Below are positions 1,864 through 56,282 of a DNA stretch of 64,000 bases, in pieces. The translations under genes and the position numbers were made by a program. Numbering within the stretch: position 1 is the stretch's first letter; each line of letters begins with the position of its first letter. The notes under the pieces were generated by a model. It was not told the origin of the DNA and searched no databases. It was given only the letters and a program-made list of their open reading frames with translations. Source of the stretch: an uncultured Candidatus Saccharibacteria bacterium. Its GTDB lineage: Bacteria; Patescibacteriota; Minisyncoccia; Minisyncoccales; CAZKCU01. The stretch spans positions 47,240-111,239 of the forward strand of contig CAYSLI010000001.1 in the NCBI GenBank assembly GCA_964431915.1, given 5' to 3'.

Positions 1864-3503
1864 GGACGACGAGCTATAATTACTGAAACCTCTTTTTTAT
1901 TTAAAAATTTTTTAACTGTATTAATAAACTCTTTTTGATTGATGGGGTCAATTACTTTTAAATTCTTTACACCGCAGGATTTAACAATATTTTCAATCTT
2001 TATTCCGTCTGGTACAGCTGGCGCCCCCGGATGGGGCTGATGCCCGGTCATAGCCGTAGTTCGATTATCCATTACGATAATTAAAGGATTGGATTTGTTA
2101 AAAACTGTATTAATCAAAGCTGGGATACCGGCGTGAAAAAAAGTTGAGTCGCCAATAAAAGTAATTAATTTTTGACCGCTCGCTTTTTTTATCCCGTGAG
2201 CAATCCCTATTGATGAACCCATACAGGAAAGATAATCTTGGATAAAATGAGGAGGCATCCCAGCTAACATATAACAGCCAATGTCTCCACCAAAAATTAC
2301 CTTTTTGGGGTCAACGGCCTTTTTAACTGCCCCAAAAACTAACCAATAGGGACAGCCAGGACAAAGTTGAGGGAACCTTTTGGGAATTTTCAATTTCCAA
2401 TTTTCAATTTTCAATGAATTTTCAATTTTCAATTTACAATTAGCAAATTTAGCGATGGCTGAGGTAACAATTTCGGGTTTTAGTTCGCCAACTTCGGGAA
2501 TCAGACTTTTTCCAAAAATTTGAAGTTTTGGATTAGCAGTTTTTGCTAATCTTTCTATTTCTCTTTCTAAATATGGCTCTAATTCTTCAACAATCAGAAC
2601 TTTTTTCAAATTTTTAATAAAATTCTTTATTTTCTCTTTTGGTAAAGGATAAAAAAATCCCAGCTTCAAAACCGGTATTTTCAAACTAAGCTCTTTTAGT
2701 GCCTCTATTACATATAAATGGGCAACCCCTGAACTAATTATCCCTATTTTCTGTCTGTCGGTATCAGATACCGACAGACTTATCTCATTTATTCGGTTTT
2801 TTTCAGAAAATTGCTTGACTTTTTCTATTTTTTCTAAAAGTTCTTTTTTCATCTCTAAAACTCTCGGGGGCATGGTAACAAATCTCTTTGGCTCTTTAAT
2901 AAACTCTCCCGTTACGTTGCCGGGTCTCGTAATTTTTCCTAGTTTGACTGGCATTCGCTGGTGAGCAACTCTGGTTGTAGTCCTTATCATTACTGGAATT
3001 TTAAATTTTTCTGAAATTTGAAAAGCTAAATTTGTAAAATCTTTACATTCCTGAGGATCTGAAGGTTCTAAAACAGGAATATGGGCTAAGAAAGCAAAAG
3101 CTCGGCTATTTTCTTCAGATTGAGCTGAACTATGACAAGAAGGGTCATCGGCAACAATAATTACAGTTGGACCCTTTGTGCCAGTATATAAAAAAGGAAG
3201 TAAAGAATCTGAACAGACATTTGTCCCAAAATTTTTCATTGCCACCAAGGTTTTCAAGCCAGAAAAAGAAGCTCCAACTCCTGCTTCCAAAGCTACTTTT
3301 TCATTGGTAGAAAACTCAAAATAACCTTTATATTTTCCTGCTTGAGAAAGTTTAAAAAAGGTATTTCCAATTTCCGAAGCCGGGGTCCCGGGATAAGTAG
3401 AAACAAATTGAATCCCTACTTCCAAAGCTCCTCGAACAATTGCTTCATTGCCCAAAAGAATAATTTTTTTGCCAGGTTTACCCAGCAGGAGAACTTCTTC
3501 CAT
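1842..3503 (-). CDS. iorA: indolepyruvate:ferredoxin oxidoreductase alpha subunit
   Basis: TPP-enzyme layout with GGDIGCY ... MGSSIGIAHG ... GDSTFFHAGIPALIN motifs. Overlaps iorB by 22 nt. Contains a 60-nt heptamer-repeat insert (see repeat 2385-2444). Confidence 0.8.
   Translation of the reverse strand: MEEVLLLGKPGKKIILLGNEAIVRGALEVGIQFVSTYPGTPASEIGNTFFKLSQAGKYKGYFEFSTNEKVALEAGVGASFSGLKTLVAMKNFGTNVCSDSLLPFLYTGTKGPTVIIVADDPSCHSSAQSEENSRAFAFLAHIPVLEPSDPQECKDFTNLAFQISEKFKIPVMIRTTTRVAHQRMPVKLGKITRPGNVTGEFIKEPKRFVTMPPRVLEMKKELLEKIEKVKQFSEKNRINEISLSVSDTDRQKIGIISSGVAHLYVIEALKELSLKIPVLKLGFFYPLPKEKIKNFIKNLKKVLIVEELEPYLEREIERLAKTANPKLQIFGKSLIPEVGELKPEIVTSAIAKFANCKLKIENSLKIENWKLKIPKRFPQLCPGCPYWLVFGAVKKAVDPKKVIFGGDIGCYMLAGMPPHFIQDYLSCMGSSIGIAHGIKKASGQKLITFIGDSTFFHAGIPALINTVFNKSNPLIIVMDNRTTAMTGHQPHPGAPAVPDGIKIENIVKSCGVKNLKVIDPINQKEFINTVKKFLNKKEVSVIIARRPCIQIKK
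2385..2444 (-). repeat. 7-nt-period tandem repeat (AATTTTC x8 with one 4-nt interruption, plus-strand reading) in frame inside iorA
   Basis: aattttc aatttcc aattttc aattttc aatg aattttc aattttc aatttac aattagc = 60 nt = 20 codons. Translated on the minus strand as ...CKLKIENSLKIENWKLKI... Confidence 0.9.
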
Positions 3504-3507
3504 ATAT

Positions 3508-6003
3508 TTAAACTACAATATTAATAAGTTTCCCCGGAACAAAAATAACTTTTTTAATCTCTTTTCCTTTGAGCCATTTTTTGATTTTTTCTTGAGAAAA
3601 AGCCAATTCTTTTGCTTTTTCTTCTTTTATATCTGCTTCAACTTCTATTTTATCACGAATTTTGCCATTGACTTGAATAACTAAAGTTATTTTCTCCTCT
3701 TCAATTAATTTCGGGTCATATCTCGGCCAGGGCTGAGAGAAAATTGAATCTCTTTTCTTATAATCTTTAAGCTCTTTTTTATCTTTTAATTTTCGCCAAA
3801 GCTCTTCTGCCATATGAGGAGCAAAAGGAGAAAAAATCTTTAGGAAATTTTTAAAATCTCCTTTTTCTAATCCTCCCTTCTCTTTTTGCCAACTATTAGA
3901 AAACTCCATCAGCGAACTAATAGCTGTGTTGAACTTTAAATTCTCAATATCTTCTGAAACTTTTTTAATAGTCTGATGAAGTAATTTTCTTAAAGCAAAA
4001 GAGCTTTTAGATTTTTGAGAATAGGGAATTTGATTAGCTAATTTCCAAGCTTTATCTAAAAACCTCTTTGATCCCTTTACTCCTCTGGTATCCCAAGCGA
4101 TAGTTTCAGCAAAGGGCCCTATAAACATCTCGTAAATTCTCAAAATATCAGCGCCGTATTGCTTTATAATTTGTTCAGGGTTAATTACGTTGCCCCGAGA
4201 CTTGGACATTTTAATTCCTCCTTCGCCAAGAATCATTCCGTGAGAAGTTCGTTTCTTATAGGGTTCGGAGCCAATAACTTTTGGTACAACCCCTATGTCC
4301 CATAAAAATTTATAGATAAAACGAGAATACAAAAGATGCAAAGTAGTATGCTCCATGCCTCCATTATACCAGTCTACTGACATCCAATATTTAAGTAATT
4401 TTGGATTGGCTAATTTTTTATCGTTTTTGGGATCACAATAGCGAAGATAATACCAATTAGAACCAGCCCAGTTTGGCATAACATCGGTCTCTCTTTTTGC
4501 GGGACCGCCGCATTTAGGGCATTTAACATTTAGCCAATTTTCAACTGCTGCCAATGGGGATTCGCCAGTCTCAGTCGGTTGATATTTTTTAACCCGAGGA
4601 AGTTTAACCGGTAAATCTTTTTCTGCCACCGGCAACCAACCACATCTCTCACACTTTATCATTGGAATTGGCTCTCCCCAATAACGTTGGCGAGAAAAAA
4701 TCCAATCTCTCAATTTATAATGAACAGTTTTTTTTGCTAAATCTTTTCTTTCTAGCCACTCAGCAATTCTTTCTTTGGCAATTTCTGAACCTATACCATC
4801 AAATCTTCCGGAATTAATTAAATATCCCTCATCTTCATAAGCTTTTTTGAACCTGCCGTTGGAAACCACTAATCCAGCTGTTTTTGGTAATTCTTTCTTT
4901 TCTTTAAAAGGTTTAATCACCTCAATCATTGGTAAATTATATTGTCTGGCGAAATCAAAATCTCTTTGGTCGTGAGCTGGAACAGCCATAATTGCCCCGG
5001 TACCATAGTGCATCAAAACATAATCTGCTAAAAAAATGGGAATTTGTCTCTGATTTACCGGATTTACTGCCTTTATTCCTTTAACTTCTATTCCAGTTTT
5101 TTCTTTAATTTCTGAAATTCTCTCTCTTTCAGTTTTCTTTTTAGATTGCTCAATATAATTTTTAACATATTTATAATTTGTAATCCGGTCTTTAAAATTT
5201 TCAATAATTGGGTGCTCAGGCGCCACCACCAAGTAAGTAGCACCAAATAAAGTATCTGCCCGAGTAGTAAACACTTGAATCTTTGAACTTGAATCTTTAA
5301 TCTTGAAAGTTATCTCCCATCCTTCTGACTTTCCTATCCAATCTTTCTGGAGAATCTTAACTTTCTCCGGGTAATCAACTTTGTCTAAATCCTGAATTAG
5401 TCTTTCAGCATACCTGGTTATTTTAAGCATCCACTGTTCTTTTTCTTTTTTCACAACTTTTGTTCCACACCTTTCGCATTTTCCATCAACCACTTCCTCA
5501 TTAGCCAAACCAATTTTACAAGCCGGACACCAGTTAATTGGCATTTTGCTTTTATAAGCTAATCCTTTTTTAAAAAGCTGTGTAAATATCCATTGAGTCC
5601 ATTTATAATAGGCCGGATCAGTAGTATTAATTTCCCGGCTCCAATCAAAAGACAGACCTATACTTTTTTGTTGCTTCTTAAAAATAGAGATGTTTTTTCG
5701 GGTAGCAGCTCTTGGACGAATCCCGGTTTTAATAGCATAGTTTTCGGTTGGCAATCCAAAAGCATCCCAGCCCATAGAAAACAAAACATTAAAACCCTCC
5801 ATTCTTCTCTTGCGGCTAACTATATCCAAAGCAATATAAGGTCGGCAATGCCCAACATGAAGCCCTTCGCCAGATGGATAAGGAAACTCAACCAAAATAT
5901 AGGCCTTTGCCTTTTTGGAAAAATCTTTCGCTTCAAAAATTCCTATTTTATCCCAAACTCTTTGCCATCTTTTTTCTATTTTCTGGGGATTATAATTGAC
6001 CAT
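3508..6003 (-). CDS. leuS: leucine--tRNA ligase
   Basis: 831 aa. Class I HVGH (GEGLHVGHCRPY) and KMSKS (IKMSKSRGN) motifs, CP1 editing domain, typical LeuRS N-terminus MxxYNPxxIExxWQxxW. Confidence 0.97.
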   Translation of the reverse strand: MVNYNPQKIEKRWQRVWDKIGIFEAKDFSKKAKAYILVEFPYPSGEGLHVGHCRPYIALDIVSRKRRMEGFNVLFSMGWDAFGLPTENYAIKTGIRPRAATRKNISIFKKQQKSIGLSFDWSREINTTDPAYYKWTQWIFTQLFKKGLAYKSKMPINWCPACKIGLANEEVVDGKCERCGTKVVKKEKEQWMLKITRYAERLIQDLDKVDYPEKVKILQKDWIGKSEGWEITFKIKDSSSKIQVFTTRADTLFGATYLVVAPEHPIIENFKDRITNYKYVKNYIEQSKKKTERERISEIKEKTGIEVKGIKAVNPVNQRQIPIFLADYVLMHYGTGAIMAVPAHDQRDFDFARQYNLPMIEVIKPFKEKKELPKTAGLVVSNGRFKKAYEDEGYLINSGRFDGIGSEIAKERIAEWLERKDLAKKTVHYKLRDWIFSRQRYWGEPIPMIKCERCGWLPVAEKDLPVKLPRVKKYQPTETGESPLAAVENWLNVKCPKCGGPAKRETDVMPNWAGSNWYYLRYCDPKNDKKLANPKLLKYWMSVDWYNGGMEHTTLHLLYSRFIYKFLWDIGVVPKVIGSEPYKKRTSHGMILGEGGIKMSKSRGNVINPEQIIKQYGADILRIYEMFIGPFAETIAWDTRGVKGSKRFLDKAWKLANQIPYSQKSKSSFALRKLLHQTIKKVSEDIENLKFNTAISSLMEFSNSWQKEKGGLEKGDFKNFLKIFSPFAPHMAEELWRKLKDKKELKDYKKRDSIFSQPWPRYDPKLIEEEKITLVIQVNGKIRDKIEVEADIKEEKAKELAFSQEKIKKWLKGKEIKKVIFVPGKLINIVV

Positions 6004-6069: not shown

Positions 6070-7518
6070 TTAAATTCTTGGGAACAAAGGCTTACTTTTT
6101 TTAATTTTTAATTGTTCAAGAATTTTTTCTGAGGTTTCTGGTAAAAAGGGCCTTAACATCTCAGCGATGTTACTAACAGTAAATAGCAAATTACCAATAA
6201 CTATTTTTTGATTTTCTTTTTCTTCCCAAGGTTTTTCTTTTTCAATATATCTATCGCAAAAACTAATTAATCCCCAAATGGAAATTAAGGCTTCATTAAA
6301 TTTAAATTTCTCTAAAGATTTTTTATAATTTCCCCGCGTTTTGTCAATTTCTTTTTTGATATTTGGATTTTGGATTTGATTTGACGTTTGGATTTTGTTA
6401 TTTGAATTTATCTTCTCTACCATTGTCAAAACTCTAGCTACCAAATTCCCAAGTCCTTTGGATAGATCAGCATTATACCTTGCTTCAAATTTCTCATAGG
6501 TAAAGTCGCCATCTTCAGTCGGCGGAATTTCCCTTAAAAGAAAATATCTTACAGCATCGGTTCCATATTTTTTTACTAGTTCAAAAGGATTAACAACATT
6601 TCCCAAAGATTTTGACATTTTTCGGCCATTAACTGTAATAAATCCGTGAACAAATATAGTTTTTGGAAATTTTAAATTAAGGGATAAAAGTATTGCCGGC
6701 CAAATCAAGGCATGAAATCTTACAATATCTTTACCGATACAATGGACATCGGCAGGCCAGTATCTTTTGAATCTTTCACTATTTTCTGAATAACCAATAG
6801 CTGAAATATAGTTAGTGAGAGCGTCTGGCCATATGTATAAAAATTGAGTAGGGTCATTAGGAACCGGAATTCCCCAATATTTTTCTTTCTCTCTTGAAAA
6901 ACTAATATCTTCCAATCCTTGTCTGATAATAGCCAATATTTCATTTTTTCTTGATTCCGGAATAATCCTTATTTTATCCTTTTCAATTATTTCTTTTATC
7001 TTTTGAGAATATTTTGAAAGGCTGAAAAAATAATTTTCTTCCTCAATTAACTCTACTTTCTTTTGATGAATAGGACATTTTTCATCAACTAAATCTTTTT
7101 TAGTAACAAAAGCTTCGCAATCGGCACAATAAAAACCTCTATAGTTCTTTTTATAAATCTCCCCATTTTCTTTTAATTTTAACCAAACCTTCTTTACTGC
7201 TGGCCAATGTCTCTTTTTATCGGTGGTTCTAATAAAATCATTATTAGAAAGATTTAAAACTGTTTTTAATTCTCTAAACTTTTCTGATATCTCATCAGCA
7301 AACTCTTTCGGCGTTTTATTAGCCTTCTCTGCTGCCCTTTTAGTTTTTAATCCGTGCTCGTCCGTACCCGTTAAGAAAAAGGTGTCTTCGCCCAATGAAT
7401 GATGATAACGAGCCAAAACATCTGCTTGAATTATCTCTAAGGCAAAACCAATATGGGGTGACGCATTAGTATAAGGAATACTAGTAGAAATAAAAAATTT
7501 TTTGTTTTTTGTCGACAT
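6070..7518 (-). CDS. metG: methionine--tRNA ligase (short form without C-terminal tRNA-binding domain)
   Basis: PYTNASPHIGF (HIGH-type) and KMSKSLGN motifs. CxxC zinc knuckle (CADCEAF...CPIH). Confidence 0.95.
   Translation of the reverse strand: MSTKNKKFFISTSIPYTNASPHIGFALEIIQADVLARYHHSLGEDTFFLTGTDEHGLKTKRAAEKANKTPKEFADEISEKFRELKTVLNLSNNDFIRTTDKKRHWPAVKKVWLKLKENGEIYKKNYRGFYCADCEAFVTKKDLVDEKCPIHQKKVELIEEENYFFSLSKYSQKIKEIIEKDKIRIIPESRKNEILAIIRQGLEDISFSREKEKYWGIPVPNDPTQFLYIWPDALTNYISAIGYSENSERFKRYWPADVHCIGKDIVRFHALIWPAILLSLNLKFPKTIFVHGFITVNGRKMSKSLGNVVNPFELVKKYGTDAVRYFLLREIPPTEDGDFTYEKFEARYNADLSKGLGNLVARVLTMVEKINSNNKIQTSNQIQNPNIKKEIDKTRGNYKKSLEKFKFNEALISIWGLISFCDRYIEKEKPWEEKENQKIVIGNLLFTVSNIAEMLRPFLPETSEKILEQLKIKKSKPLFPRI
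6361..6410 (-). repeat. ~7-nt-period low-complexity block (TTTGGAT-type) in frame inside metG
   Basis: atttgg attttgg atttg atttgacg tttgg attttgtt atttga attta. Encodes ...NNKIQTSNQIQNPNIKK... near the MetRS C-terminal helical domain. Confidence 0.8.
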
Positions 7519-12359: not shown

Positions 12360-14063
12360 TTATTGAATCTTGCCCATTTCCTCGCTAATAGTCGGGTCAT
12401 CTGGCAAAGAGGCATTAACCGGATCGGCTGTAGCTTCCACCTTTTCTCCTGTCCAGACATCTTCTCCGATTATTCTAACCTGAGAAATAAGTTCAGGAAT
12501 CTCTCTTCTCTGGGCCGAATCAGGAGTTAAAGCAACTTGAAAGGAAATCTCAGGCTCGGGGCCCGAAATTCCTTTTCCTGCTGTTAACTCACCAATTTCC
12601 CAGACAATTTCCCGGCTCACAGAGTCAAAAGAAAACTTAGCTTCTTTTGAAGAAATTTCGCCAGTTAATCTCACCTGAAGAGGTAAATTAGCTTTAACTT
12701 TTAGATTTTTAACATCGTTGTAAAAATTTTTAGCCTGCCAAAAGATAGTATAAGTTGTTGTAGAGCCAACCCGGGGAGGAAGGGGCCCATAATTTTTAAA
12801 AGCTCCCTTGTCAAAATAACCTCTCTGAGAAATAGCCAGCTTTGTGTTAATTTTAGTAATAAATTCTTCTTTAGCCTCACTCAAGCTAATTTTAGTTTTG
12901 ATTTGAGGATTTTTGAGAGAGAAATCGTCTTTCACTCTTACCCAAAATCCAACTTTTCCTTCTTCCATACTGGATAGAAGACGTAATTGGGGAACTGTAA
13001 TATGGTCCCAGATAATTGAGTTTGAACCTTTTTGAAATTGGCCGGCTCCAGCTTGAAGAGTGTCAAAATCTAAAACTCCTCCTTCTAACTGAACTACCAA
13101 AAATAAATTTTCCAAACCTTCCTCTCCGGTATTTTTAAAGAAGACTTCGTAATACAGATAATCCCCGGGGCAAGCTGAATATTGAGGAGAATTATTAATT
13201 TGATAGGAGAGAAAAATCGAAGGTCTGGTAATTTCTATCCCCTTAGTTGTCTCTTTTAATAAAACAAATTCTCCTTCCTGCCAGATGCCTAAATTTGCCC
13301 GAAAGATTTTTGACTCTTGAACCTCTCCCCTTAGAATGCCGGAAACTTCAATTCTTCCTCCCCCAGCCTTATTTAAAAGTGGAATCTCCCATTCTGTTTT
13401 TCCTAAGGACTTTGGCTGACTCTCAAAAAACTCAAAGCCAGCAGGATATTCAATCCTTACTCTTAAATTAGAAATAGGATAATCTATATTTGAAAAATAA
13501 TTTAACCTAAAGAGAGTTTTTCTGCCAGGTTCAACTTTCGAAGGAAAATCAAATTCAAAAGTAAGAGGAACACTTTTAATTAAAGTAGTGAAAGTGGTGG
13601 CTGACTCATAGCGAGTTTTTAGATTTTTTGGTTTATAACTTAACCAAGCCTTGGCAATCTTAGCTTCATTTTCTCTACCTAATAATCTGGCTTTAAAATG
13701 GAAGGTTCTCTCTTGGCCAGGGTAGATATCCTCGAGTTCTTTTTCTTGTCTTGGAGATACTTCTTCTTGAGGCAGGGCTTCCTGATTTTCAGACCGGATT
13801 TCTTCTTCGACAACTATTGAATTTTTAGGATATTCAAAAATAAGTTTTGGCTCTTCTAACCTGATATTGCCATTATTTTTATATTTCACTATATATTCAA
13901 TTTCTTGAGCCATTTCTACTTCTTCTGGTCCCAAAATTTCCACTCTCAAAATCTCTTTGGAATAAATATTTCTTTGATAATACCAAAAACCGGCTACCCC
14001 TAAGATAATCGTTAAAATGATAATAACTTTTATTAATTTCCCCTTCATGTACCGAGCTTCCAT
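12360..14063 (-). CDS. membrane-anchored protein with repeated beta-sandwich (DUF11/CARDB-like) modules, function unknown; true start may be ATG at 14048
   Basis: N-terminal TM helix (LIKVIIILTIILGVAGFWYY) followed by repeated ~100-aa segments. The first 5 codons (MEARY) are contributed by repeat element copy A, so the start is uncertain. Confidence 0.6.
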   Translation of the reverse strand: MEARYMKGKLIKVIIILTIILGVAGFWYYQRNIYSKEILRVEILGPEEVEMAQEIEYIVKYKNNGNIRLEEPKLIFEYPKNSIVVEEEIRSENQEALPQEEVSPRQEKELEDIYPGQERTFHFKARLLGRENEAKIAKAWLSYKPKNLKTRYESATTFTTLIKSVPLTFEFDFPSKVEPGRKTLFRLNYFSNIDYPISNLRVRIEYPAGFEFFESQPKSLGKTEWEIPLLNKAGGGRIEVSGILRGEVQESKIFRANLGIWQEGEFVLLKETTKGIEITRPSIFLSYQINNSPQYSACPGDYLYYEVFFKNTGEEGLENLFLVVQLEGGVLDFDTLQAGAGQFQKGSNSIIWDHITVPQLRLLSSMEEGKVGFWVRVKDDFSLKNPQIKTKISLSEAKEEFITKINTKLAISQRGYFDKGAFKNYGPLPPRVGSTTTYTIFWQAKNFYNDVKNLKVKANLPLQVRLTGEISSKEAKFSFDSVSREIVWEIGELTAGKGISGPEPEISFQVALTPDSAQRREIPELISQVRIIGEDVWTGEKVEATADPVNASLPDDPTISEEMGKIQ

Positions 14064-14109
14064 TTATGGAAGCAAAGGTGAAGAAGAGGGCGAAGCCCTC
14101 TTCGCCTTA
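14046..14109 (-). repeat. GC-rich hairpin repeat element, copy A (long form, 64 nt), abutting the start codon
   Basis: Minus strand: TAAGGCGAAGAGGGCTTCGCCCTCTTCTTCACCTTTGCTTCCATAAATGGAAGCTCGGTACATG. Hairpins GAAGAGGG/CCCTCTTC and CTTCCA/TGGAAG. Near-identical to copy B. Confidence 0.85.
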
Positions 14110-14126: not shown

Positions 14127-14864
14127 TCAGCCTTCTTTTAAAAAAGTAAGATAAAGTTCTGATATTTCTTTTAGATTTTTTCTCTCTTCTTTTATTATTT
14201 TAAGTCTGGGCAATATTTCCCAATTATTTGAAAGAAAAATTCTTAAAATTTTAACCGTAACTACGCTTATTTCTTTTACTCTTTCTTTTTCTTCTGGGCT
14301 GAGTTTTTTCAAACATCTCCAGCATACTACCCCTCCTTCCTTTGGCACAAAATAAAAAGTTTCTGGCAAAAGTTTCTCTCTGCAAATTGGGCAAGTAGAA
14401 AGTTCAGGTTTAAACCCTAAAAGAGAAAAGAGGTTCCAGAGGAAATAGCAATAAATTAGTTGTAAGTTGTAAGTTGTAAGTTGTAAGTTGTTTAATTTTA
14501 TAAAAGCTTCATTTAATAAATTCCAAATATCTTTGTCAGGTTCTTGTCCTTTGACTAAATTATCCAAAACTTCTGAAATCTGATAGGCAATAACCAATCT
14601 CTCTAAGTCTTTTCTGATATTTTTAAATTTCTCAATTAAAATGGCATCGGTTAGGGTTTTGTAGGCTTTCCCTTGAATAAATTCAATCTCTGAAAAATAA
14701 AAAAGTTCGGCTCCTGCTCTTAATTTTGATTTGATTTTCCTGATAGCTCTTCCCAAAATCTCTAATTTCCCGAAATCCTTAGTATAAATTGTAAAAAGCT
14801 GATCGGCCTCACCCCTATCCTCTTTTTTTATAATTATCCCCTGAGTTCTGTAATGAGTGAACAT
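14127..14864 (-). CDS. recO: DNA repair protein RecO
   Basis: N-terminal OB-fold region (GIIIKKEDRGEADQLFTIYTKDFGKLEILGRAIRK) and C-terminal zinc motif CPICxx...CWRC. Confidence 0.85.
   Translation of the reverse strand: MFTHYRTQGIIIKKEDRGEADQLFTIYTKDFGKLEILGRAIRKIKSKLRAGAELFYFSEIEFIQGKAYKTLTDAILIEKFKNIRKDLERLVIAYQISEVLDNLVKGQEPDKDIWNLLNEAFIKLNNLQLTTYNLQLIYCYFLWNLFSLLGFKPELSTCPICREKLLPETFYFVPKEGGVVCWRCLKKLSPEEKERVKEISVVTVKILRIFLSNNWEILPRLKIIKEERKNLKEISELYLTFLKEG
14459..14493 (-). repeat. heptanucleotide tandem repeat (GTTGTAA x4 + GTTGTTT) inside recO
   Basis: Four perfect 7-mers read directly. Translated as ...LQLTTYNLQLIY... Confidence 0.95.
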
Positions 14865-14870: not shown

Positions 14871-15260
14871 TCATTTCCCCAGAATTCCCTTTGTCAACCT
14901 TTTTGCTTTCCCTTTATCTTCATAGGATAAATCTTTAAATTTCCCCCATTTCCCCAAATTTAATTGTTTTTCTGCTTCCTCCACGTCTTTTTTCTTTACA
15001 GAACTGCCGTGGCCGAAAAGCTTTTCCCCTATCCTAGTCGTGTCTTTTTTTGCCAAACTGGTTCTTCTATAAAGCTCGGGATTTCCTAATTGATGCATAA
15101 AATTCCCCCGATTCATATAAGACTTTCCTCCGAACATTGAACTATCTTTCTCTTCTTTTTTTGGTGATGGAGTTGAGGTTTTTTCTGGTCTTCTTTTTAT
15201 TCCTCCCCCACCAAAAATTTTTTTAATATCAAAAATTGCCATATTTTTAAATTTTTTCAA
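14871..15260 (-). CDS. hypothetical basic, low-complexity protein (alternative start ATG 15242)
   Basis: 129-aa ORF between ileS and recO, Lys/Gly-rich, no recognisable motif. The start overlaps the ileS stop by 14 nt unless Met7 is used. Confidence 0.4.
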   Translation of the reverse strand: MKKFKNMAIFDIKKIFGGGGIKRRPEKTSTPSPKKEEKDSSMFGGKSYMNRGNFMHQLGNPELYRRTSLAKKDTTRIGEKLFGHGSSVKKKDVEEAEKQLNLGKWGKFKDLSYEDKGKAKRLTKGILGK

Positions 15261-18126
15261 TTGCTAACCATAATTTTGTTTGACCGACCTTTAAATTTTT
15301 TTCAATGTCAAAGATTTTCTTTAATTTTTTACCAAAAAGAAAATCTCTGGCTTTGGTCTCTTCTAAAATGTCTTTTTTATTTTTTTCTAAAACTTTCTTC
15401 AATTTCTCTTGGCACTCACAATAAATAATAATTTTGTCTTTGGGAGTAAGTTTAGCTTTTTTCCGCAGTTGCTGAACTTGTCGGATAAATTCTCGAACCT
15501 GCCCTTCCTCTCTTAACTCTTTGGTAATTTTTATATCCAACTCTATTTCCTCTTTAATCTTCGGGTCAAAAACTATTTCTTTAACATTAACTTCTTCTTT
15601 AATTAGCTGTAATAGTTCTTTATTATTTTTGATTTTTGATTTTTGATTTTTGATTTTGAGCAAAGCGAGAGGTTGACGTACTTTAATCCCGGCCTTTACT
15701 CTTTCAGCCAACGCGAAAGCGACTACTTCTCGACCCTGCTCCATTTTTTCTTCTAAGTCTTTGTTAATTAATCTTTTGTTTGGCTTAGGATAATCAGCCA
15801 GATGGACTGATTCTTTGAGGCCGCTTAATTTTTGGTAAATTTCTTCAGCAATAAAGGGTGTAAAAGGAGCTAAAAGCTTACTTAAATTCAAAAGCAGATA
15901 ATAAAGGGTCTGACGGGCTTCATCTTTTTCTTTTTTCGCTTCTGGTTTTTGGAACCTTCTCCGGGAACGACGGATGTACCAATTAGATAAATCCTCAACA
16001 AAATCTTCAAATAATCTCGCAGCCGAAACAATATCATAATTATCCAGATTTTTAATTACCCGAAGATTTAAATTTTCTAAGCGAGAGAGAATCCACTTGT
16101 CAAGTAAATTTTGGGATTTAAAATTTTCTTTTGGTTTAAACTGTTTGTCAGTATAAGTGGAAAAGAACACTAAAACATTTCGCAAGGTATCAAAAAACTT
16201 TCTATATATAGTTTGAACGTCTTTAAAATCAAATCTTTTGGGATCAGCTACTTGGTTGATTGTATAAAAATAGAATCTGGCAACATCGACTCCAAATCTG
16301 TCAATTACATCTTTGGGCCAAACAATATTACCTTTTGACTTTGACATTTTTTTGCCTTTGGCATCTAAAACAATGCCATTAACCACAACATTTTTATAAG
16401 GAGTACCAAAATTTAAAAGGGTTGAAACAGCCAATAGGGTATAAAACCAACCTCTTGTTTGGTCTAATCCTTCACAAATAAAATCTGCTGGGAAAGACAA
16501 ACTCTTATCGATTCTTTCTTTGTTCTCAAAAGGATAATGCCATTGGGCAAAAGGCATACTTCCCGAATCAAACCAACAATCAATTACTTCAGGAACTCGT
16601 CTCATTTGACCACCACATTTTTTGCACTTGAAAGTAATTTTGTCAATAAAGGGTTTGTGTAAATCAGTAATTTTTTTACCGCTTAATTTTGTTAATTCCT
16701 CAATTGATCCAATCACTTCAATATTATTACAAGATTTTTGATTTTTGCTGTTTTGGCATTGCCAAATCGGGAGAGGTGTACCCCAGTAACGCTCACGCGA
16801 TAAGTTCCAATCTTTAATTTCTCTGAGCCATTCACCGAATCTCCCTTCTTTCAAATAATTGGGGACCCAGTTTATTTCTTGATTGTTTTTGAGCAGCTCT
16901 TTTTTAAGAGCAGTCATTTTAATAAACCAAGAAGTTTTAGCGTAATAAAGTAAGGGGGTACCACAACGCCAACAAAAAGGATATTCATGTTCGTATAATT
17001 CTTCTTTGAAAAAAAGGTTTCTTTTTCTTAAATCTTCAATAATTGGAGGGTCAGCTTCTTTAACAAATAGCCCTGCCCATTTTTTAACTTCTGTTTTAAA
17101 ACACCCACTCTCATCAACAGTCATTAGAATTGGTAAATCATTTTTCTTTGCTGCTGCCATATCTTCTTCTCCAAAAGCTGGGGCAACATGGACTAAACCT
17201 GTTCCCTCCCCTAATGAAACAAAATCGCCAGGAATTATATGGTAAGCTTTTTTATCAAGCCTTGCAGAAGGAAACAAAGGTTGATACTCCATTCCAAGAA
17301 GTTCTTTTCCTTTAAACTCTTGAACAATTTTATCCCCTACCCCACAAGCTTTCATTCGTTCTTTTGCCAAAATCAAATATTCATCATCGACTTTTGCCCT
17401 AACATAAGTAAAATCAGGATTTACGGCAATTGCCACATTCCCTGGTAAAGTCCAAATTGTTGTTGTCCAAATTAATAAATAAGTATTTTTGAACTTTAAA
17501 TTTTTAACTTTCAACTTTACATATAACGCTGGTTCTTTAATTTTCTTGTATCCTTGAGCTACTTCGTGGCTAGACAGACTCGTCCCACATCTCGGACAAT
17601 AAGGCACAACTTTGTAATCTTGATATAATAATCCTTTCTTCCAAATTTTCTTTAAAGCCCACCATAAGCTCTCAATATAATCATTACTACAGGTAATATA
17701 AGCATTTTTTAAATCAAGCCAGAAACCAATTCTTTTAGTAAATTCTTCCCATTCTTTTTTATAGGTAAAAACATTTCTTTTACACTCTTCAATAAATTTC
17801 TCAATGCCAAGTTGCTCGATTTCTTTTTTAGTTTTAATTTTAAGTTTCTCTTCAGCCGCTATCTCAGTGGGTAAACCATGAGTGTCCCAACCGGCCTTTC
17901 TCTCAACAAAAAAACCCTGCATAGTTTTATAACGCAAAATTATATCTTTGAAAGCCCGAGCCAAAAGATGATGGATACCAGGCAAGCCATTAGCGTAGGG
18001 TGGTCCTTCAAAAAAAACAAATTTTGGACCTTTTTTGGTCTTCTCTAAACTCTTCTTAAAAATTCTATTCTTTTCCCAGAATTTGAGAATCATCTCTTCT
18101 AATTTTCGAGGTTCATATTTTTCCAT
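15247..18126 (-). CDS. ileS: isoleucine--tRNA ligase (type 2, archaeal/eukaryote-like)
   Basis: 959 aa. PPYANGLPGIHH (HIGH-type) and KMSKSKGN motifs, CP1 editing domain, Zn-ribbon CxxC pairs. Confidence 0.97.
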   Translation of the reverse strand: MEKYEPRKLEEMILKFWEKNRIFKKSLEKTKKGPKFVFFEGPPYANGLPGIHHLLARAFKDIILRYKTMQGFFVERKAGWDTHGLPTEIAAEEKLKIKTKKEIEQLGIEKFIEECKRNVFTYKKEWEEFTKRIGFWLDLKNAYITCSNDYIESLWWALKKIWKKGLLYQDYKVVPYCPRCGTSLSSHEVAQGYKKIKEPALYVKLKVKNLKFKNTYLLIWTTTIWTLPGNVAIAVNPDFTYVRAKVDDEYLILAKERMKACGVGDKIVQEFKGKELLGMEYQPLFPSARLDKKAYHIIPGDFVSLGEGTGLVHVAPAFGEEDMAAAKKNDLPILMTVDESGCFKTEVKKWAGLFVKEADPPIIEDLRKRNLFFKEELYEHEYPFCWRCGTPLLYYAKTSWFIKMTALKKELLKNNQEINWVPNYLKEGRFGEWLREIKDWNLSRERYWGTPLPIWQCQNSKNQKSCNNIEVIGSIEELTKLSGKKITDLHKPFIDKITFKCKKCGGQMRRVPEVIDCWFDSGSMPFAQWHYPFENKERIDKSLSFPADFICEGLDQTRGWFYTLLAVSTLLNFGTPYKNVVVNGIVLDAKGKKMSKSKGNIVWPKDVIDRFGVDVARFYFYTINQVADPKRFDFKDVQTIYRKFFDTLRNVLVFFSTYTDKQFKPKENFKSQNLLDKWILSRLENLNLRVIKNLDNYDIVSAARLFEDFVEDLSNWYIRRSRRRFQKPEAKKEKDEARQTLYYLLLNLSKLLAPFTPFIAEEIYQKLSGLKESVHLADYPKPNKRLINKDLEEKMEQGREVVAFALAERVKAGIKVRQPLALLKIKNQKSKIKNNKELLQLIKEEVNVKEIVFDPKIKEEIELDIKITKELREEGQVREFIRQVQQLRKKAKLTPKDKIIIYCECQEKLKKVLEKNKKDILEETKARDFLFGKKLKKIFDIEKNLKVGQTKLWLAIEKI
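15626..15659 (-). repeat. heptanucleotide tandem repeat (TTTTTGA x4 + TTTTGA) in frame inside ileS
   Basis: tttttga x4 read directly. Translated as ...KIKNQKSKIKNNK... in the C-terminal region. Confidence 0.95.
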
Positions 18127-19652: not shown

Positions 19653-21272
19653 TTACATTTTTTCTGGAGCGGAAATGCCCATTAGATATAAAACGTTTTT
19701 TAAAACAGTTTTAGTGGCTGAGATTAAAGCCAATCTTGCCTCAGTTAATTCTTTGTTATCTGATAAAACTTGACAATCTCTATAAAATTGGTGAAATTGA
19801 TGGGCAAGTTCAAATGCATACTGAGGTAATCTCTGAACCTGATAATCCTTTGTCGTATCCTCAACAATTTCTGGGAGTCTAATAAGTTGTTTAATTAAGT
19901 TTAACTCATTATCGTGATTTAATAATTGAAATTTTGCATTTTGCATTTTGGGTTTTGGATTTGATTTGATATTTGACATTTGGATTTTGGATTTTACAAG
20001 AATGCTATGTATTCTGGCGTGAGCATATTGAATATAATAAACCGGATTTTTTTCTGACTGTTTTTTAGCTAGAGTGAGGTCGAAATTTAAATGAGTATTA
20101 GCTGATTTTTGGAGAAAAAAGAATTTAGCAACATCAACTCCTACCTCCCGGAGTAATTCATCCATAGTAACAAGAGTTCCCCGTCTTTTTGAAATTTTCA
20201 GCTTTTTCCCTCTTTCAAGTATAGTTACAAATTGAAGCAATAAAATATCAAGTTTGCCTTTATAACCTAAAGCTTCCACTCCTGCCTGAAGACCTGCTAC
20301 ATCACCGGCATGGTCAGCTCCCCAAATATCTATTACTTTGTCAAATTTCTTCTTCTCAAATTTATAGTGGTGATAGGCAAGGTCACCTGCCAGATAAGTT
20401 TTATCACCATCCGCTTTGACTACTACCCTGTCTCTTTTGTCGTCATATTTGGAGCTTCTGAACCAAACTGCTTTTTCTTTTTGATAAATTAAATTTTTCT
20501 GCTCCAAAATCTTCAAAACTTTGTCTACTTGGCCGCTCTCGTGAAGGGTTTTTTCTGAAAACCACTCGTCATAATTAATCCCCATTCTGTCGGTTGTTTT
20601 TTTAATCATCTCATCAATAATAATTTTGCCAGCTCTCTCACCTGCCTTATGGGGCTCTTTTTCTTTGATTCTTTTGGCAAGTTCATCAATATATTTACCT
20701 TTGTATTTTGCCTCTTTGTCTTCCAAAATAGAATGTCCCAGAGCTAAAATTTGCATCCCGTAATCATTAATATAGTAAGCTTTTTCTACTTTAAATCCCA
20801 CTTTTTCCAGAACGTTTCCCAAAACGTCACCAAAAGGACCGCCTCGAGCATTGCCGACAGTTAGAGGACCTGTTGGATTTGCCGAAATAAATTCTACCTG
20901 GACTTTCTTTCCTTTGCCAATATTTAACTCACCAAACCTCTCTCCCTTCTTTAAAATTTCTCCAATTCTCTGTTGTAAATATTCTTTTGAAAGAAAAAAA
21001 TTAATAAACCCTGGTTTGACTACCTCAACTTTGTCAAAAAAATCAGATTTGAGACCTAAGATTTGAGATTTGAGATTTTCTGCTGTTTCCAATGGGTTTT
21101 TATTTATTTCCCGCCCGATTACCATCGCCGCGTTTGTGGCATAATCTCCGTGGGGCTTTTGTTCTGAATATTCTATCTGAATTTCAGGGATATCAATTTC
21201 TGGCAAAATTCCTTTTTTTTGGAGTAATTTTGTTGATTTTTCTATTAATTTTTTAATTTCTTCTCTTGCCAT
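19653..21272 (-). CDS. argS: arginine--tRNA ligase
   Basis: FISANPTGPLTVGNARG (HIGH-region equivalent). Add-1 N-terminal domain. C-terminal DALR anticodon-binding domain ending ...GISAPEKM. Confidence 0.95.
   Translation of the reverse strand: MAREEIKKLIEKSTKLLQKKGILPEIDIPEIQIEYSEQKPHGDYATNAAMVIGREINKNPLETAENLKSQILGLKSDFFDKVEVVKPGFINFFLSKEYLQQRIGEILKKGERFGELNIGKGKKVQVEFISANPTGPLTVGNARGGPFGDVLGNVLEKVGFKVEKAYYINDYGMQILALGHSILEDKEAKYKGKYIDELAKRIKEKEPHKAGERAGKIIIDEMIKKTTDRMGINYDEWFSEKTLHESGQVDKVLKILEQKNLIYQKEKAVWFRSSKYDDKRDRVVVKADGDKTYLAGDLAYHHYKFEKKKFDKVIDIWGADHAGDVAGLQAGVEALGYKGKLDILLLQFVTILERGKKLKISKRRGTLVTMDELLREVGVDVAKFFFLQKSANTHLNFDLTLAKKQSEKNPVYYIQYAHARIHSILVKSKIQMSNIKSNPKPKMQNAKFQLLNHDNELNLIKQLIRLPEIVEDTTKDYQVQRLPQYAFELAHQFHQFYRDCQVLSDNKELTEARLALISATKTVLKNVLYLMGISAPEKM
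19932..19998 (-). repeat. ~7-nt-period repeat block (ATTTTGC/ATTTTGG/ATTTGAT units, ~10 units) in frame inside argS
   Basis: attttgc attttgc attttgg gttttgg atttg atttgat atttgac atttgg attttgg attttac. Translated as ...KSKIQMSNIKSNPKPKMQNAKFQ... Confidence 0.9.
21047..21080 (-). repeat. heptanucleotide repeat (ATTTGAG units) in frame inside argS N-terminal domain
   Basis: atttgag acctaag atttgag atttgag attttc. Translated as ...ENLKSQILGLKSD... Confidence 0.85.
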
Positions 21273-27544: not shown

Positions 27545-29257
27545 TTATTTGAAAAATTTCAACAATTTCTCAAGTGGTTGGGTGTTAATTATATCTCTTT
27601 TCTCTGCCCAGCCGCGGCGGGCTTGGGCAATTCCAAATTCAATAAATCTCATTTGGTCCCGGTGGTGAGCGTCAGTATTGATTACCATTTTCACTCCAGC
27701 CTCTTTTGCCCGACGAATATTCTGGTCGTTTAAATCTAATCTTTCCGGACAAGAATTAATTTCAAGAATTACCCCGAATTGCTTGGCTGCTCTTAAGAGC
27801 TTATCAAAATCAATCTGATATTCGTCTCTTCTTTTCAATATTCTTCCAGTCGGATGGGAAATAATTTTAATATAGGGATTTTTCATTGCCTGAATAATTC
27901 TTTCGGTCATTTCCCCCTTTTCCATTTTAAAACTGGAATGAACTCCGGCTATGGCATAATCTAATTTTTTTAATGCCTCGTCTTTAATATCAATTGAACC
28001 GTCATTTAAAATGTTTGTTTCTGCTCCCTGTAAAATTTTGAAATTTTTGAATTTTTGATTTAATTTGTCTATTTTTTTTCTTTGCAAAGCTAATCTTTTT
28101 TCATCCAAGCCATGCTCAATCCTTAAAAATTTAGTATGGTCAGTGATTCCCAAATATTCATGTCCCCTTTTCATCGCAGTTTCGACCATTTCCAAAATCG
28201 AATTATGACCGCCATTCCATTTAGAGTGAGTATGTAAATCTCCTTTAATATCTTCCAGTTCTACTAACTTTGGCAGTTTTCCCTTCAGGGCTACTTTAAT
28301 TTCTCCCTGGTTTTCTCTTAATTCAGGGGGTACCCAAGCCATCCCTAAGACTTTATAAACTTCTTCTTCATTCCTCCCGGCAATCTGTTTCTCCCCCCGG
28401 AAAACTCCATATTCATTCAGTTTTAAGCCTTTAGCTATGGCAATTTTTCTGGTGGCGATATTATGTTCTTTTGAACCAGTAAAATATTGGAGAGCCGAAC
28501 CATAAGATTTAGCTGACACCACTCTAATGTCCATATCAAAACCCTCTTTCATCTTTACCGATGATTTAGTCTTGCCCTTGCCCCAAATTTTAATCACTCT
28601 GGGCAGAGAAACAAAAAAATCCATAACTTTCTCTGGATTTTTGGAAATTACCAAAAAATCGACATCGCCGATGGTTTCTTTCATCCTTCTGACAGAACCC
28701 GCTGGATCAACTTTTTCAACTTCTTTTAGGTTTTTTAATTTTTCATAAACTTCCTTAACAACCGGAAGAATTTCTCCCAAAAGAAACCTTCCCTTACTTC
28801 TCTTTAAAAAAGCTATCCCCTCCAAGATATTTTTTTCAGTTTTTTCCCCAAAACCGAAGAGAGGAGCAATTTTGTGAGTTCTGGCTGCTTTCTCTAAATT
28901 TTTTAAATTTCTAATCCCTAATTTTTGGTATAACACCTTCACCTTTTTTGGGCCCATTCCCTCCACAGCTGCCAATTCTTCGAGATCCAAGGGAGTTTTT
29001 CTCTTAAGTTCCTGGTAATACTTTATCTTCCCCTTTTTTAAATATTCTTCAATTTTTTCAGCAATGTTTTTTCCAACGCTAGGAATTTTTTCTAAAGCCT
29101 GCCTTCCTCCCTCTTCATAAATTTCTTCAACATCTTCCTCCAAGGTTTCCAAAGTCAGGGCTGCTTTCTCATAAGCATAGGGTTTGAAAGCCACTCCTTC
29201 CATCTCAAGATATTGGGCTATCTTATATAATATTTTAGCTATTTCCTGATTTTTCAT
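27545..29257 (-). CDS. polX: DNA polymerase X family protein with C-terminal PHP phosphoesterase domain (PolX)
   Basis: N-terminal HhH/8-kDa and pol-beta nucleotidyltransferase (GSVRRMKETIGDVDFLV). C-terminal PHP (DLHTHSxW...GITDH...NTDAH). Confidence 0.9.
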   Translation of the reverse strand: MKNQEIAKILYKIAQYLEMEGVAFKPYAYEKAALTLETLEEDVEEIYEEGGRQALEKIPSVGKNIAEKIEEYLKKGKIKYYQELKRKTPLDLEELAAVEGMGPKKVKVLYQKLGIRNLKNLEKAARTHKIAPLFGFGEKTEKNILEGIAFLKRSKGRFLLGEILPVVKEVYEKLKNLKEVEKVDPAGSVRRMKETIGDVDFLVISKNPEKVMDFFVSLPRVIKIWGKGKTKSSVKMKEGFDMDIRVVSAKSYGSALQYFTGSKEHNIATRKIAIAKGLKLNEYGVFRGEKQIAGRNEEEVYKVLGMAWVPPELRENQGEIKVALKGKLPKLVELEDIKGDLHTHSKWNGGHNSILEMVETAMKRGHEYLGITDHTKFLRIEHGLDEKRLALQRKKIDKLNQKFKNFKILQGAETNILNDGSIDIKDEALKKLDYAIAGVHSSFKMEKGEMTERIIQAMKNPYIKIISHPTGRILKRRDEYQIDFDKLLRAAKQFGVILEINSCPERLDLNDQNIRRAKEAGVKMVINTDAHHRDQMRFIEFGIAQARRGWAEKRDIINTQPLEKLLKFFK

Positions 29258-53534: not shown

Positions 53535-53903
53535 ATGACAAAAACAATCTTAGTCGTTGAGGATGATAAATTTTTAAGAGAATTAATTGTTCGGAAACTC
53601 AAGGAAGAGAATTTCAATATTACAGAAGCAATTGATGGTGAAGAGGGGATAAAAAAAATAAAAGAAGAGAAGCCGGATTTAGTTTTGCTTGATTTAATTT
53701 TGCCGGGGATTGATGGATTTGAAGTTTTATCAAAAATGAAAGAAGACATGTCTTTGGCTCAGATTCCAGTAATTATTCTTTCCAATCTCGGCCAGAAAGA
53801 TGATGTGGAAAGGGGACTTAAATTAGGAGCAGTTGATTATTTGATTAAAGCCCACTTCACTCCCGGAGAAATTATCGAGAAGGTAAAGGATGCCCTAAAG
53901 TAA
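53535..53903 (+). CDS. single-domain response regulator (CheY-like receiver), second copy
   Basis: EDD pocket, DLVLLDLILP phospho-acceptor, ILSNL, DYLIKA. Confidence 0.9.
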   Translation: MTKTILVVEDDKFLRELIVRKLKEENFNITEAIDGEEGIKKIKEEKPDLVLLDLILPGIDGFEVLSKMKEDMSLAQIPVIILSNLGQKDDVERGLKLGAVDYLIKAHFTPGEIIEKVKDALK

Positions 53904-53982
53904 CCAATAACCAAGAAACAAGATACAAACAATATCCAATCACCAATAATCAATAACCAAATGTTTGGTTATTGTATCTTGT
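53902..53982 (+). repeat. CAATAAC-type heptamer array (about 9 units) whose 3' part folds back as an imperfect palindrome
   Basis: aaccaat aaccaag aaacaag atacaaa caatatc caatcac caataat caataac caaatg. CAATAACCAAA-TG-TTTGGTTATTG is a perfect hairpin, extended by ACAAGATAC/GTATCTTGT. Confidence 0.85.
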
Positions 53983-56154: not shown

Positions 56155-56178
56155 ATTCCTTGCTTCACTCGGTCAAGT

Positions 56179-56206
56179 GCAAAATTCAAAATGAAAAATG
56201 CAAAAT
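56179..56206 (+). repeat. heptamer repeat (GCAAAAT TCAAAAT GAAAAAT GCAAAAT) in the rpsT upstream/leader region
   Basis: Four 7-mers read directly, 25-52 nt upstream of the rpsT ATG (on the opposite strand). Confidence 0.85.
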
Positions 56207-56282
56207 GACAGAGAAAAATTTAAAGTTGAATTATAAATATAACATAGCAAATAAAAAACATTTTTACAAGAAAAGAGATTCT

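Follow-up and report, generated by a model that had tools for sequence, protein, structure and literature searches.

The window analysed here is a 64,000-nucleotide (nt) stretch of contig CAYSLI010000001.1. It is AT-rich, with a GC content of 31-39% along its length (mean ~34%), and the relatives of its arginyl-tRNA synthetase (ArgRS) identify its source as a genome of the Candidate Phyla Radiation (CPR; Patescibacteria) near Candidatus Nealsonbacteria. The nearest ArgRS relative found in metagenome and genome scans is CP179888.1, with 79% amino acid (aa) identity. The subject of this report is a set of short arrays of tandemly repeated 7-nt units, referred to as heptamer arrays, which lie in frame within housekeeping genes of the window and in some of its intergenic spacers. 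The names given to the host genes in an earlier reading of the sequence (the original prediction) are upheld by Pfam, namely an IorA-like thiamine pyrophosphate (TPP) enzyme, MetRS, RecO, IleRS, ArgRS, PolX and TsaE. An open reading frame (ORF) of 831 aa was assigned by Pfam to LeuRS.

Period-7 arrays in the window

Tandem repeats were called with Tandem Repeats Finder (TRF), and identity at a lag of 7 nt (lag-7 identity) was computed block by block. The arrays, with one related block in PolX, are as follows.

2385..2441, minus strand: IorA-like array; TRF ~8.6 copies, sense unit GAAAATT; inter-domain linker peptide KLKIENSLKIENWKLKI
5274..5307, minus strand: LeuRS array; TRF 4.9 copies, sense units AAGATTA/AAGATTC; encodes FKIKDSSSKIQV at the start of the editing domain
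6353..6410, minus strand: degenerate MetRS array broken by indels; units AAATCCA/AATCAAA; encodes NSNNKIQTSNQIQNPNIKK at the junction of the catalytic and anticodon-binding domains; TRF period 7 with score 34 (6353-6377) and period 25 with score 74
14458..14491, minus strand: RecO array; sense unit CAACTTA, 4.9 perfect copies (100% matches); encodes NLQLTTYNLQL
15625..15657, minus strand: IleRS array a; sense unit AAAAATC, 4.7 perfect copies (100% matches); encodes KIKNQKSKIKN at the junction of the anticodon-binding and C-terminal domains
16733..16760, minus strand: IleRS array b, weak; CAAAAAT-type units; TRF score 30 (16733-16747), lag-7 identity 0.67
17488..17519, minus strand: IleRS array c; TRF period 7, 4.6 copies, lag-7 identity 0.76; encodes VKLKVKNLKFKN
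19931..19995, minus strand: ArgRS site 2 array; TRF ~9.7 copies, 75% matches, lag-7 identity 0.73; sense units CCAAAAT, GCAAAAT and ATCAAAT; encodes VKSKIQMSNIKSNPKPKMQNAKF in a loop past the first helix of the DALR domain
21045..21078, minus strand: ArgRS site 1 array; TRF 4.9 copies, sense unit AAATCTC; encodes ENLKSQILGLKS in the N-terminal domain
28031..28075, minus strand: PolX block; TRF period 8, lag-8 identity 0.68 against lag-7 identity 0.53
53901..53960, plus strand: intergenic array of TAACCAA type; ~9 copies; between a response-regulator gene and fpg
56178..56207, plus strand: intergenic array of TGCAAAA; 4.3 copies; between the divergent rpsT and a Mur-ligase-like gene

The window holds at least nine solid period-7 arrays. 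TRF rows of period 7 start at 2385, 5274, 6353, 14458, 15625, 16733, 17488, 19931, 21045, 53901 and 56178. Exact self-match runs of at least 12 bases occur five times at period 7 and never at periods 2-6 or 8-11, while dinucleotide shuffles of the window yield ~0 such period-7 runs. A tolerant sliding-window test agrees with this result. After the blocks are masked no residual lag-7 autocorrelation is found in the window, so the signal is confined to discrete blocks that make up ~2% of it. The arrays are head-to-tail heptamers of 3 to 11.4 copies (TRF period-7 rows) and are simple sequence repeats (SSRs) in this respect. Chance or base composition as the source of the excess is ruled out by the shuffles, the sliding-window test and the period counts in relatives. 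An assembly artefact is also excluded, because orthologous arrays recur in frame in many independent assemblies and two complete genomes.

Lag-7 identity is strong in recO (0.93), ileS-a (0.93), ig3 (0.81), iorA (0.77), argS-2 (0.73), argS-1 (0.70) and ig2 (0.69). It is weak or ambiguous in metG (0.56), where indels break it, and in ileS-b (0.67), which is short. The tsaE block is weak too, at 0.61 and with no TRF row. The specific excess of period 7 that had been predicted is confirmed by TRF, the exact runs and the shuffles, and most of the blocks then listed lie at or near the positions given for them, with metG, ileS-b and tsaE as weak cases. Two intergenic stretches, 53480-53531 and 59763-59802, had been listed as heptamer blocks and are not, their lag-7 identities being 0.18 and 0.15. 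The polX block had been described as made of 8-9 nt units, which fits; true heptamer arrays occur at its orthologous site in relatives (L003, L010, L028 and L037; related loci carry L numbers). Two arrays were absent from the earlier list, leuS 5274-5307 and ileS 17488-17519.

The intergenic array at 53901-53960 is followed by a partial inverted copy (53964-53981) able to pair with it, and then by a hairpin, CTTTTGCGAAGCAAAAG. The RNA fold of 53901-54015 has a z-score of -4.2. The true start of fpg, ATGCCCGAACTCCCCGAAGTA (MPELPEV), is at 54016; the mechanical ORF start at 53961 falls within the hairpin. Arrays paired with inverted copies were also observed upstream of argS in L005 and L006.

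Fixed sites and segment length

The relatives sampled comprise 88 related CPR loci (822 kb), fetched via ArgRS, and 12 non-CPR loci (157 kb). Among 69 ArgRS genes, 34 of which bear arrays, all 48 arrays lie at only two sites, aa 65-78 (site 1) and aa 426-450 (site 2). The units are specific to clades: AAATCTY, AATAATC, AAAATCA, TTAAGGT and TAGGTTC at site 1, and AAAATGC, AAAATTA, AAGCTAC and GAAATCC at site 2. Further fixed sites are RecO aa ~130, IleRS aa ~215, 337, 471, 675 and 835, and PolX aa ~412. The site of IleRS array a is filled by other units in at least ten relatives, that of array b holds an array in L021 and that of array c in L003, L021 and L031. The IorA linker is repeat-coded in nearly all of 38 orthologues, which were retrieved independently of ArgRS. 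A total of 42 distinct sense units was recorded. Units differ among the loci of one genome, as had been predicted from the window, and no common terminal motif was found at the array boundaries.

The arrays were placed on structures through sequence alignments to PDB chains; a single-sequence AlphaFold2 model of ArgRS was unusable (mean pLDDT 37). In length, the ArgRS site 1 segment matches both array-free orthologues and Pyrococcus horikoshii ArgRS (2ZUE), in which it aligns with the helix AEKIVEKLKLNLPEG. In RecO, almost all of 30 orthologues share a segment length of 36 aa, even at 40% identity, and for IleRS site ~833 the baseline is 39 aa in either IleRS type (see below). The MetRS block aligns at equal length with the linker of PDB 4DLP. 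For IorA, the PDB search spanned the N-terminal domain only and is uninformative on the array site; its orthologues fall into length classes of 42 aa and 46 aa, with P0002 6 aa shorter.

These comparisons bear on the view put forward originally, in which random blocks of new DNA were inserted by slippage or PolX-type template-switch repair and those that were in frame and free of stops were kept. Additional length does occur: ArgRS site 2 is 8 aa longer than in Campylobacter jejuni 3FNR (it is about equal to 2ZUE, and relatives have loops of 15 to 42 aa), L042, L044 and L093 have 14 extra aa at IleRS site ~833, and LeuRS aa 655-672 has 8 more residues in L132. Longer host proteins are thus seen only in part: in ArgRS at site 2, in certain lineages for IleRS and LeuRS, and between the length classes of IorA. 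The window also encodes PolX. However, length is unchanged at most tested sites, and the equal-length alignments largely refute insertion. The claim that the segments have no counterpart in their families fails for ArgRS site 1, RecO, IleRS ~833 and MetRS, all of which equal repeat-free orthologues or PDB homologues in length. Nor are the sites random, since arrays recur at the same few positions in ArgRS, RecO, IleRS, PolX and IorA. PolX is present at 70-71% identity in sister clades with zero arrays, and its presence is therefore not sufficient as a cause. The insertion model is now decidedly improbable. The opposite prospect, that the segments are conserved ancestral linkers, holds for position and length. 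It does not hold for the sequence of the segments, which resembles a repeat and changes rapidly.

A separate observation concerns small inserts. In many relatives, GC-richer inserts of 5-17 aa, such as GARAIGRVVAGWR, PGRLLKQPAGQAG and SAPPAGGRRTS, are situated exactly at array sites. They were recorded in IorA orthologues (P0009, P0028, P0035, P0050, P0066, P0072, P0106 and P0107), in RecO of L065 and L049 and in ArgRS of L009, L027 and L049, and the DNA of some can form hairpins (L027 GGAGGTCGCACCTCC). The array sites thus look like general hotspots at which small insertions arise in frame.

Concerted evolution and strain stability

The ArgRS site 1 units of 25 species can be set in one register, as variants of a single ancestral unit (TARRNTC-like). 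Within the array, lag-7 identity is 0.65 inside a genome, against 0.51 between genomes at the same positions; in the flank beside it the values are 0.26 within and 0.78 between genomes. Formally, this pattern marks concerted evolution. Perfect site 1 arrays are carried by both L005 and L027, of AAAGTCA and AAAATCA respectively, which are one base apart in every unit. The 4-fold degenerate sites of these two loci are only 51% identical, close to saturation, which excludes independent decay of the two arrays.

Turnover is seen at other hosts as well. RecO of L001, 89% identical to that of the window in aa sequence, has the unit GTCAATT where the window and L022 have CAACTTA, at the same length. 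In LeuRS of L132 (~85% aa identity), NLKSKILNLKS (AAATCTG, five copies) stands in place of NFKDRITNYKY in the window, again at equal length, and a 9.4-copy AAATCCC array has 8 aa more than the degenerate version in the window. At the 5274..5307 array the L132 LeuRS peptide is identical to that of the window.

Some changes in length take discrete steps. In L049, L050, L052 and L055, exactly 7 aa are missing from ArgRS site 1, and the longer IleRS site ~833 of three loci was noted above. Copy numbers bunch near 5, with lesser groups near 8 and at 11.4, which fits steps of +/-3 units under selection on the reading frame. IorA length varies by an 18-nt (7+11) compound unit. Copy number is not quantised in the intergenic arrays, of which there are few.

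Strains were compared through exact-protein look-ups, which cover only those that are identical or ~0.2% diverged. Over seven arrays, three Logan contigs (two runs) match the window at 100% identity. In the species of L022, three strains differ by ~40 single-nucleotide polymorphisms and two indels in 21.6 kb, with zero array differences. The arrays are not hypermutable between these strains. Phase-variation-like changes in length, which had been raised as a possibility, are not borne out in these strains, and all coding arrays remain in frame. In a side observation, two Logan contigs from independent assemblies (SRR8556428 and SRR8556479) end inside the perfect ileS AAAAATC array (15628-15654; the 3' end of L102 and the 5' end of L103). 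These breaks could arise from k-mers common to other arrays or from length heterogeneity in the population.

Reading frame and strand

The coding arrays are translated without stops into K/N/Q/S/I-rich peptides, and their A-rich strand is the sense strand, both as predicted. Over 90 coding arrays the sense strand contains 51% A, 26% T, 15% C and 8% G. When perfectly repeated, 17 of the 42 sense consensus units would produce a stop, and in every case the offending phase has been patched: TAA is replaced by GAA, CAA, AAA or TGC, and TGA by TGG, TGT or TCA. The IorA-like array holds an 18-nt (7+11) sub-repeat which bypasses the in-frame TGA of GAAAATT.

The avoidance of stops had been offered as the reason for the choice of strand. 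Random heptamers free of stops would be expected to be T/C-rich, not A-rich, and 14 of the 42 units are stop-free in the antisense direction too, the ArgRS example among them. Stop avoidance as the sole reason is therefore ruled out by unit composition. The simplest account is a filter at the level of the peptide, as A-rich units encode K/N/Q/S/I and T-rich units F/L/C/W.

Each position of a unit is read in three codon phases, which means that a homogenised array has no silent positions. Between the window and L004 the site 1 array is 83% identical, as against 41% at 4-fold sites. The array is conserved above the 4-fold sites because none of its positions is purely synonymous.

Selection on the protein itself was considered as the origin of the repeats. 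Heptad-like, K/N/Q-rich surface segments with a period of 7 aa might be favoured, for example in episymbiotic interactions, and the DNA period would then be a by-product. A 7-nt repeat does encode a 7-aa repeat, L/I/V often stand at i and i+7 (ENLKSxILxLKS, xLKIKNQKLKx), and similar 7-aa patterns occur in array-free orthologues at IleRS ~833 and in RecO. Against this, selection on the peptide predicts a period of 21 nt and not 7, the intergenic arrays share the 7-nt period, and the peptides at a given site differ widely by clade. Of all the readings weighed here this one seems the least probable. Peptide-level duplication of 21 nt is likewise ruled out, the DNA period being 7.

Distribution across the lineage

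In the 88 CPR loci there are 95 exact runs of at least 10 bases with period 7 and 41 with period 14; no other period has more than 16. No period-7 exact runs were found in the 12 non-CPR loci (157 kb). TRF gave 75 arrays in relatives with period 7 as the best row. Outside argS, loci of the inner clade, defined by an ArgRS identity to the window of at least 0.67, carry 0.91 arrays per 10 kb. The figure is 0.23 for one outer group, and the outer clade with L013 has none. L013 belongs to the complete genome CP179889.1, of which the 21.6 kb sampled hold no array; CP179888.1 is array-bearing. Heptamer arrays are a lineage-wide trait of this Nealsonbacteria-like CPR clade. No published report of such arrays in CPR bacteria was found in literature searches, and no Rfam family matches them. 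A scan of viral contigs for (AAAAATC)x4 returned 28 matches, mostly in metagenome-assembled genomes of giant viruses and at contig ends, and is uninformative for CPR.

Coding sequence (CDS) holds 90 of 102 arrays (88.2%), compared with a coding fraction of 88.9%, and array formation is thus blind to location. The host genes encode ArgRS, IleRS, LeuRS, MetRS, RecO, PolX and IorA; none belongs to a surface, virulence or restriction-modification class. Short tandem repeats other than triplets are generally enriched in intergenic DNA and normally purged from bacterial coding sequence (PMC12699852). In this lineage the density in essential genes matches that elsewhere.

The retention of positions and of the 7-nt period over deep divergence might be taken to mean that the arrays are functional cis-elements under selection at the DNA or RNA level, such as sites bound by a nucleoid or RNA-binding protein, translation-rate signals at domain boundaries or structure-forming DNA. 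Certain arrays are conserved beyond 4-fold sites, many lie at domain junctions, and the intergenic arrays adjoin start codons or pair with inverted copies, comparable to the proposal made for TAACTGA in Beggiatoaceae (PMC4679880). On the other hand, the 42 distinct units offer no common motif for a binding factor, close relatives swap units wholesale, and sister clades and some lineages have no arrays at the same sites with the length unchanged. The additional conservation is already accounted for by reading in three phases. A functional role of this kind is unlikely.

A nested mini-element

A double-hairpin mini-element of ~55 nt was found in relatives, with the consensus CCGAGCTTCC..GGAAGCGAAGGTGAAGAAGAGAACGAAGTTCTCTTCGCC (aCCGAGCTTCC-loop-GGAAGCGAAGGTGAAGAAGAGAACGAAGTTCTCTTCGCC). 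Covariation occurs in both stems, and a C-GAA-G loop closes the second hairpin and, in some copies, also the first. There was no match to an Rfam family for the mini-element. The copies are listed below.

14052-14106, plus strand: window copy, intergenic, by the start of the gene downstream of recO
L007 ~11205-11262, L007 ~14692-14748 and L036 ~4027-4090: copies in relatives
L046 ~3724-3784, L024 ~6235-6290 and L028 ~8340-8405: copies in relatives
L042 ~4100-4160, minus strand: copy in a relative; further copies in L055 and L088

The element lies in frame (54 nt) inside arrays of ArgRS (L007, L036), IleRS (L007) and PolX (L046). L032 represents the empty site, 54 nt shorter and with the array present.

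It was considered whether the arrays are tied to mobile DNA, as landing pads or by-products of the mini-element, as sequences spread together with it, or through ectopic gene conversion between arrays. The nesting within three array hosts, the co-occurrence of element and arrays in the inner clade, the identical irregular arrays at non-homologous loci and the GC-richer mini-inserts at array sites of IorA and RecO orthologues all point in this direction. The empty site in L032, however, already carries the array, which must be older than the insertion. The arrays also have no common terminal motif in their flanks, their units vary among the loci of a genome, and the window has ~10 arrays against a single copy of the element, outside the arrays. 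A tie of this kind is considered improbable.

Hairpin mini-elements are known from other bacteria, as Rickettsia palindromic elements (RPE) and as elements of the REP/RAYT (repetitive extragenic palindrome) or IS200/IS605 type. Similar to RPE, the mini-element is small and palindromic, is placed in frame in essential genes at permissive sites and shows hairpin covariation. It differs in its size, ~55 nt as opposed to 100-150 nt, and no associated transposase was seen for it.

Interpretation

The best explanation of the arrays, given a probability of roughly 0.6, is that they are heptanucleotide simple-sequence arrays which evolve in concert in weakly constrained linkers and are then filtered by selection. 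The arrays occupy a fixed set of short permissive linker or surface segments of housekeeping proteins, together with a few transcribed spacers, and at most tested sites the repeat overwrites a segment of ancestral length with no fresh insertion. The 7-nt period would be generated and maintained in the DNA itself. Adjacent units would copy one another, with an offset of 7 nt, during slipped-strand or template-switch synthesis. Units would occasionally be gained or lost, and a change in a single unit would spread through the array. Selection would keep the frame, by 21-nt (3-unit) steps or by compensated units such as 7+11 = 18 nt, and would act against stops, with single substitutions patching would-be stop codons. 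It would also favour hydrophilic K/N/Q/S/I-rich peptides, with the A-rich strand as the sense strand.

From these patterns we infer slippage or transient misalignment as the molecular mechanism. The period of 7 may stem from the polymerase footprint, by analogy with what has been suggested for heptamer SSRs in general. Templated addition of the telomerase type or by a diversity-generating retroelement (DGR) is ruled out, as no unit is common to the loci of a genome. This leaves as candidate cause a process that acts on the DNA in a register of 7 nt and could be multi-unit slippage or length-neutral transient misalignment. It agrees with the one explanation in print for the heptamer excess of bacteria in general, an influence of the polymerase footprint on slippage (Mrazek 2007, as cited in PMC4692102).

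Several observations weigh against concerted simple-sequence evolution of this form. Single-unit slips on the way from two to five copies would be lethal frameshifts in essential genes, so the origin of an array would need multi-unit or length-neutral events, which are hypothetical. Copy-number heterogeneity is zero in the strains that are identical or ~0.2% diverged, and ongoing slippage can accordingly be read only from patterns between species. The arrays have a sharp length mode at 32-34 nt and the lengths of perfect runs are bimodal, neither of which is obviously predicted by simple slippage. At ArgRS site 2 the loops do not come in multiples of 7 aa. A near-identical site 1 unit is retained in the window and L004 at saturated 4-fold sites, which could reflect function beyond the constraint on the peptide. 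An irregular array, GAAAATTCATTGAAAATTG, is common to iorA of the window and recO of L007, and CAACTTA is present both in recO and in ileS of L037. Such matches at non-homologous loci hint at exchange between loci, beyond local slippage alone.

Part of this could be accommodated by a clade-specific, length-preserving mutational drive. During replication or repair, copying from a template 7 nt away would time and again turn linker-coding segments of essential genes into heptamer arrays throughout the genome, and would perhaps exchange variants between loci and offer landing sites to the mini-element. Such a drive is put forward tentatively, as a possibility that is rather doubtful at present. 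If it is true, length-preserving copying would amount to a novel form of directional drive on sequence, unlike ordinary microsatellite slippage. The 35-year-old question of why tandem heptamers occur in bacteria would then also become accessible to comparative tests, since the arrays lie in alignable genes of hundreds of genomes.

On the preferred reading of concerted, selection-filtered simple sequence, the lineage provides a natural system in which the birth, homogenisation and turnover of heptamers may be followed. As the arrays are embedded in alignable proteins of constrained length, ancestral states and step sizes are directly readable. A comparison of array-rich with array-free Nealsonbacteria-like lineages, two complete genomes included, could expose the replication or repair determinant of period 7, which bacterial repeats have long been seen to favour. 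There is also a caution for CPR annotation and phylogenomics: array segments evolve in concert, mimic coiled-coil or low-complexity sequence and break k-mer assemblies, and should be masked.

Comparison with known systems

Tandem heptamers known as short tandemly repeated repetitive (STRR) sequences occur in heterocystous cyanobacteria (Calothrix, Anabaena and Nostoc), with their function and period unexplained. Elhai et al. (2008) reportedly described small dispersed hairpin-like elements nested in Nostoc heptamer arrays, which would parallel the mini-element. STRR sequences differ from the CPR arrays in having few units, shared genome-wide, in being non-coding and in belonging to another phylum.

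AT-rich genomes of the Plasmodium type carry Asn/Lys-rich low-complexity inserts in loops of housekeeping proteins, which are presumed to arise by slippage. The AT-rich genome and the hydrophilic peptides at loops of housekeeping proteins are common to both systems. The Plasmodium inserts are codon (3n) repeats and true insertions, whereas the CPR arrays have a 7-nt unit read in three phases and usually add no net length.

An excess of heptamer SSRs in bacteria, with the idea of slippage over the polymerase footprint, was reported by Mrazek 2007, as cited in PMC4692102. GGGAATC of Xanthomonas and GGGGA(C/T)T of Nostoc were described by Mrazek, Guo and Shah 2007, as summarised in PMC4692102. 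Mrazek-type SSRs share with the present arrays the tandem 7-nt units, the period-7 excess, copy numbers of mostly 2-10, occurrence in the same gene gaps of related species with variable sequence and length, and attribution to slippage (PMC4692102). They are described there as ~90% intergenic and G-rich, with one dominant unit per genome, and the Xanthomonas heptamers as only 7-11% intragenic (PMC4692102). The mainly intergenic placement of cyanobacterial and Xanthomonas heptamers does not apply to the CPR arrays, which lie in ORFs of essential enzymes in 88% of cases, are A-rich and have at least 42 units. They also hold clade-wide fixed protein positions, with protein length mostly unchanged.

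In marine Beggiatoaceae, TAACTGA direct repeats occur, some of them just 5' of start codons (PMC4679880). These are heptamers as well, and a few copies are read through free of stops to give 7-aa repeats (PMC4679880). TAACTGA is a single conserved heptamer found mainly between genes, and its copies within genes lie at protein termini (PMC4679880), in contrast to the varied units of the CPR arrays in mid-protein linkers of essential genes. A single conserved heptamer near start codons was not found in the CPR loci, where there is no conserved unit and few arrays abut a start codon (the L042 array overlapping the argS start, and 53901-53960 in the window). The CPR arrays are an unusual, lineage-wide version of the known heptanucleotide simple repeats.

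Other features of the window

38848-40215: dnaA
40406-41551: unannotated ORF directly downstream of dnaA
49432-50391: stand-alone 5'-3' exonuclease (FEN-like) gene
44786-44952, minus strand: region holding a 15-nt tandem repeat, TTCCTCTGCGGGAGT, in 4.2 copies with 100% matches, then degenerate 12-nt units
53486-53531 and 59763-59802: dispersed ~46-nt motif, AATTCG..GCATTCGCAT...ATTCGTAGATTCGCATTAT, with an exact 19-mer common to both copies

The replication origin probably lies inside the window, to which dnaA, the ORF that follows it, a switch in gene orientation and the minimum of cumulative GC skew (~40-48 kb) all point. On either side of the probable origin, gene direction equals replication direction.

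The copies of the ~46-nt motif end 3-6 nt 5' of the ATG of a response-regulator gene and of a NIF3-like gene, and the motif may be a shared promoter, operator or leader. The 15-nt repeat lies in a minus-strand ORF of ~55 aa encoding (ETPAE)n. It is an ordinary minisatellite with a unit that is a multiple of the codon, in contrast to the heptamers.

The IleRS of the window (15247-18126) is just 45-47% identical to the IleRS of L001, L022 and L046, and 73% identical to that of L021. RecO (72-93%) and PolX (77-87%) of the window are far closer to those of L001, L022 and L046. Judged from these identities, this suggests that two IleRS types have been swapped within the clade. The array site at ~833 is filled in both types.

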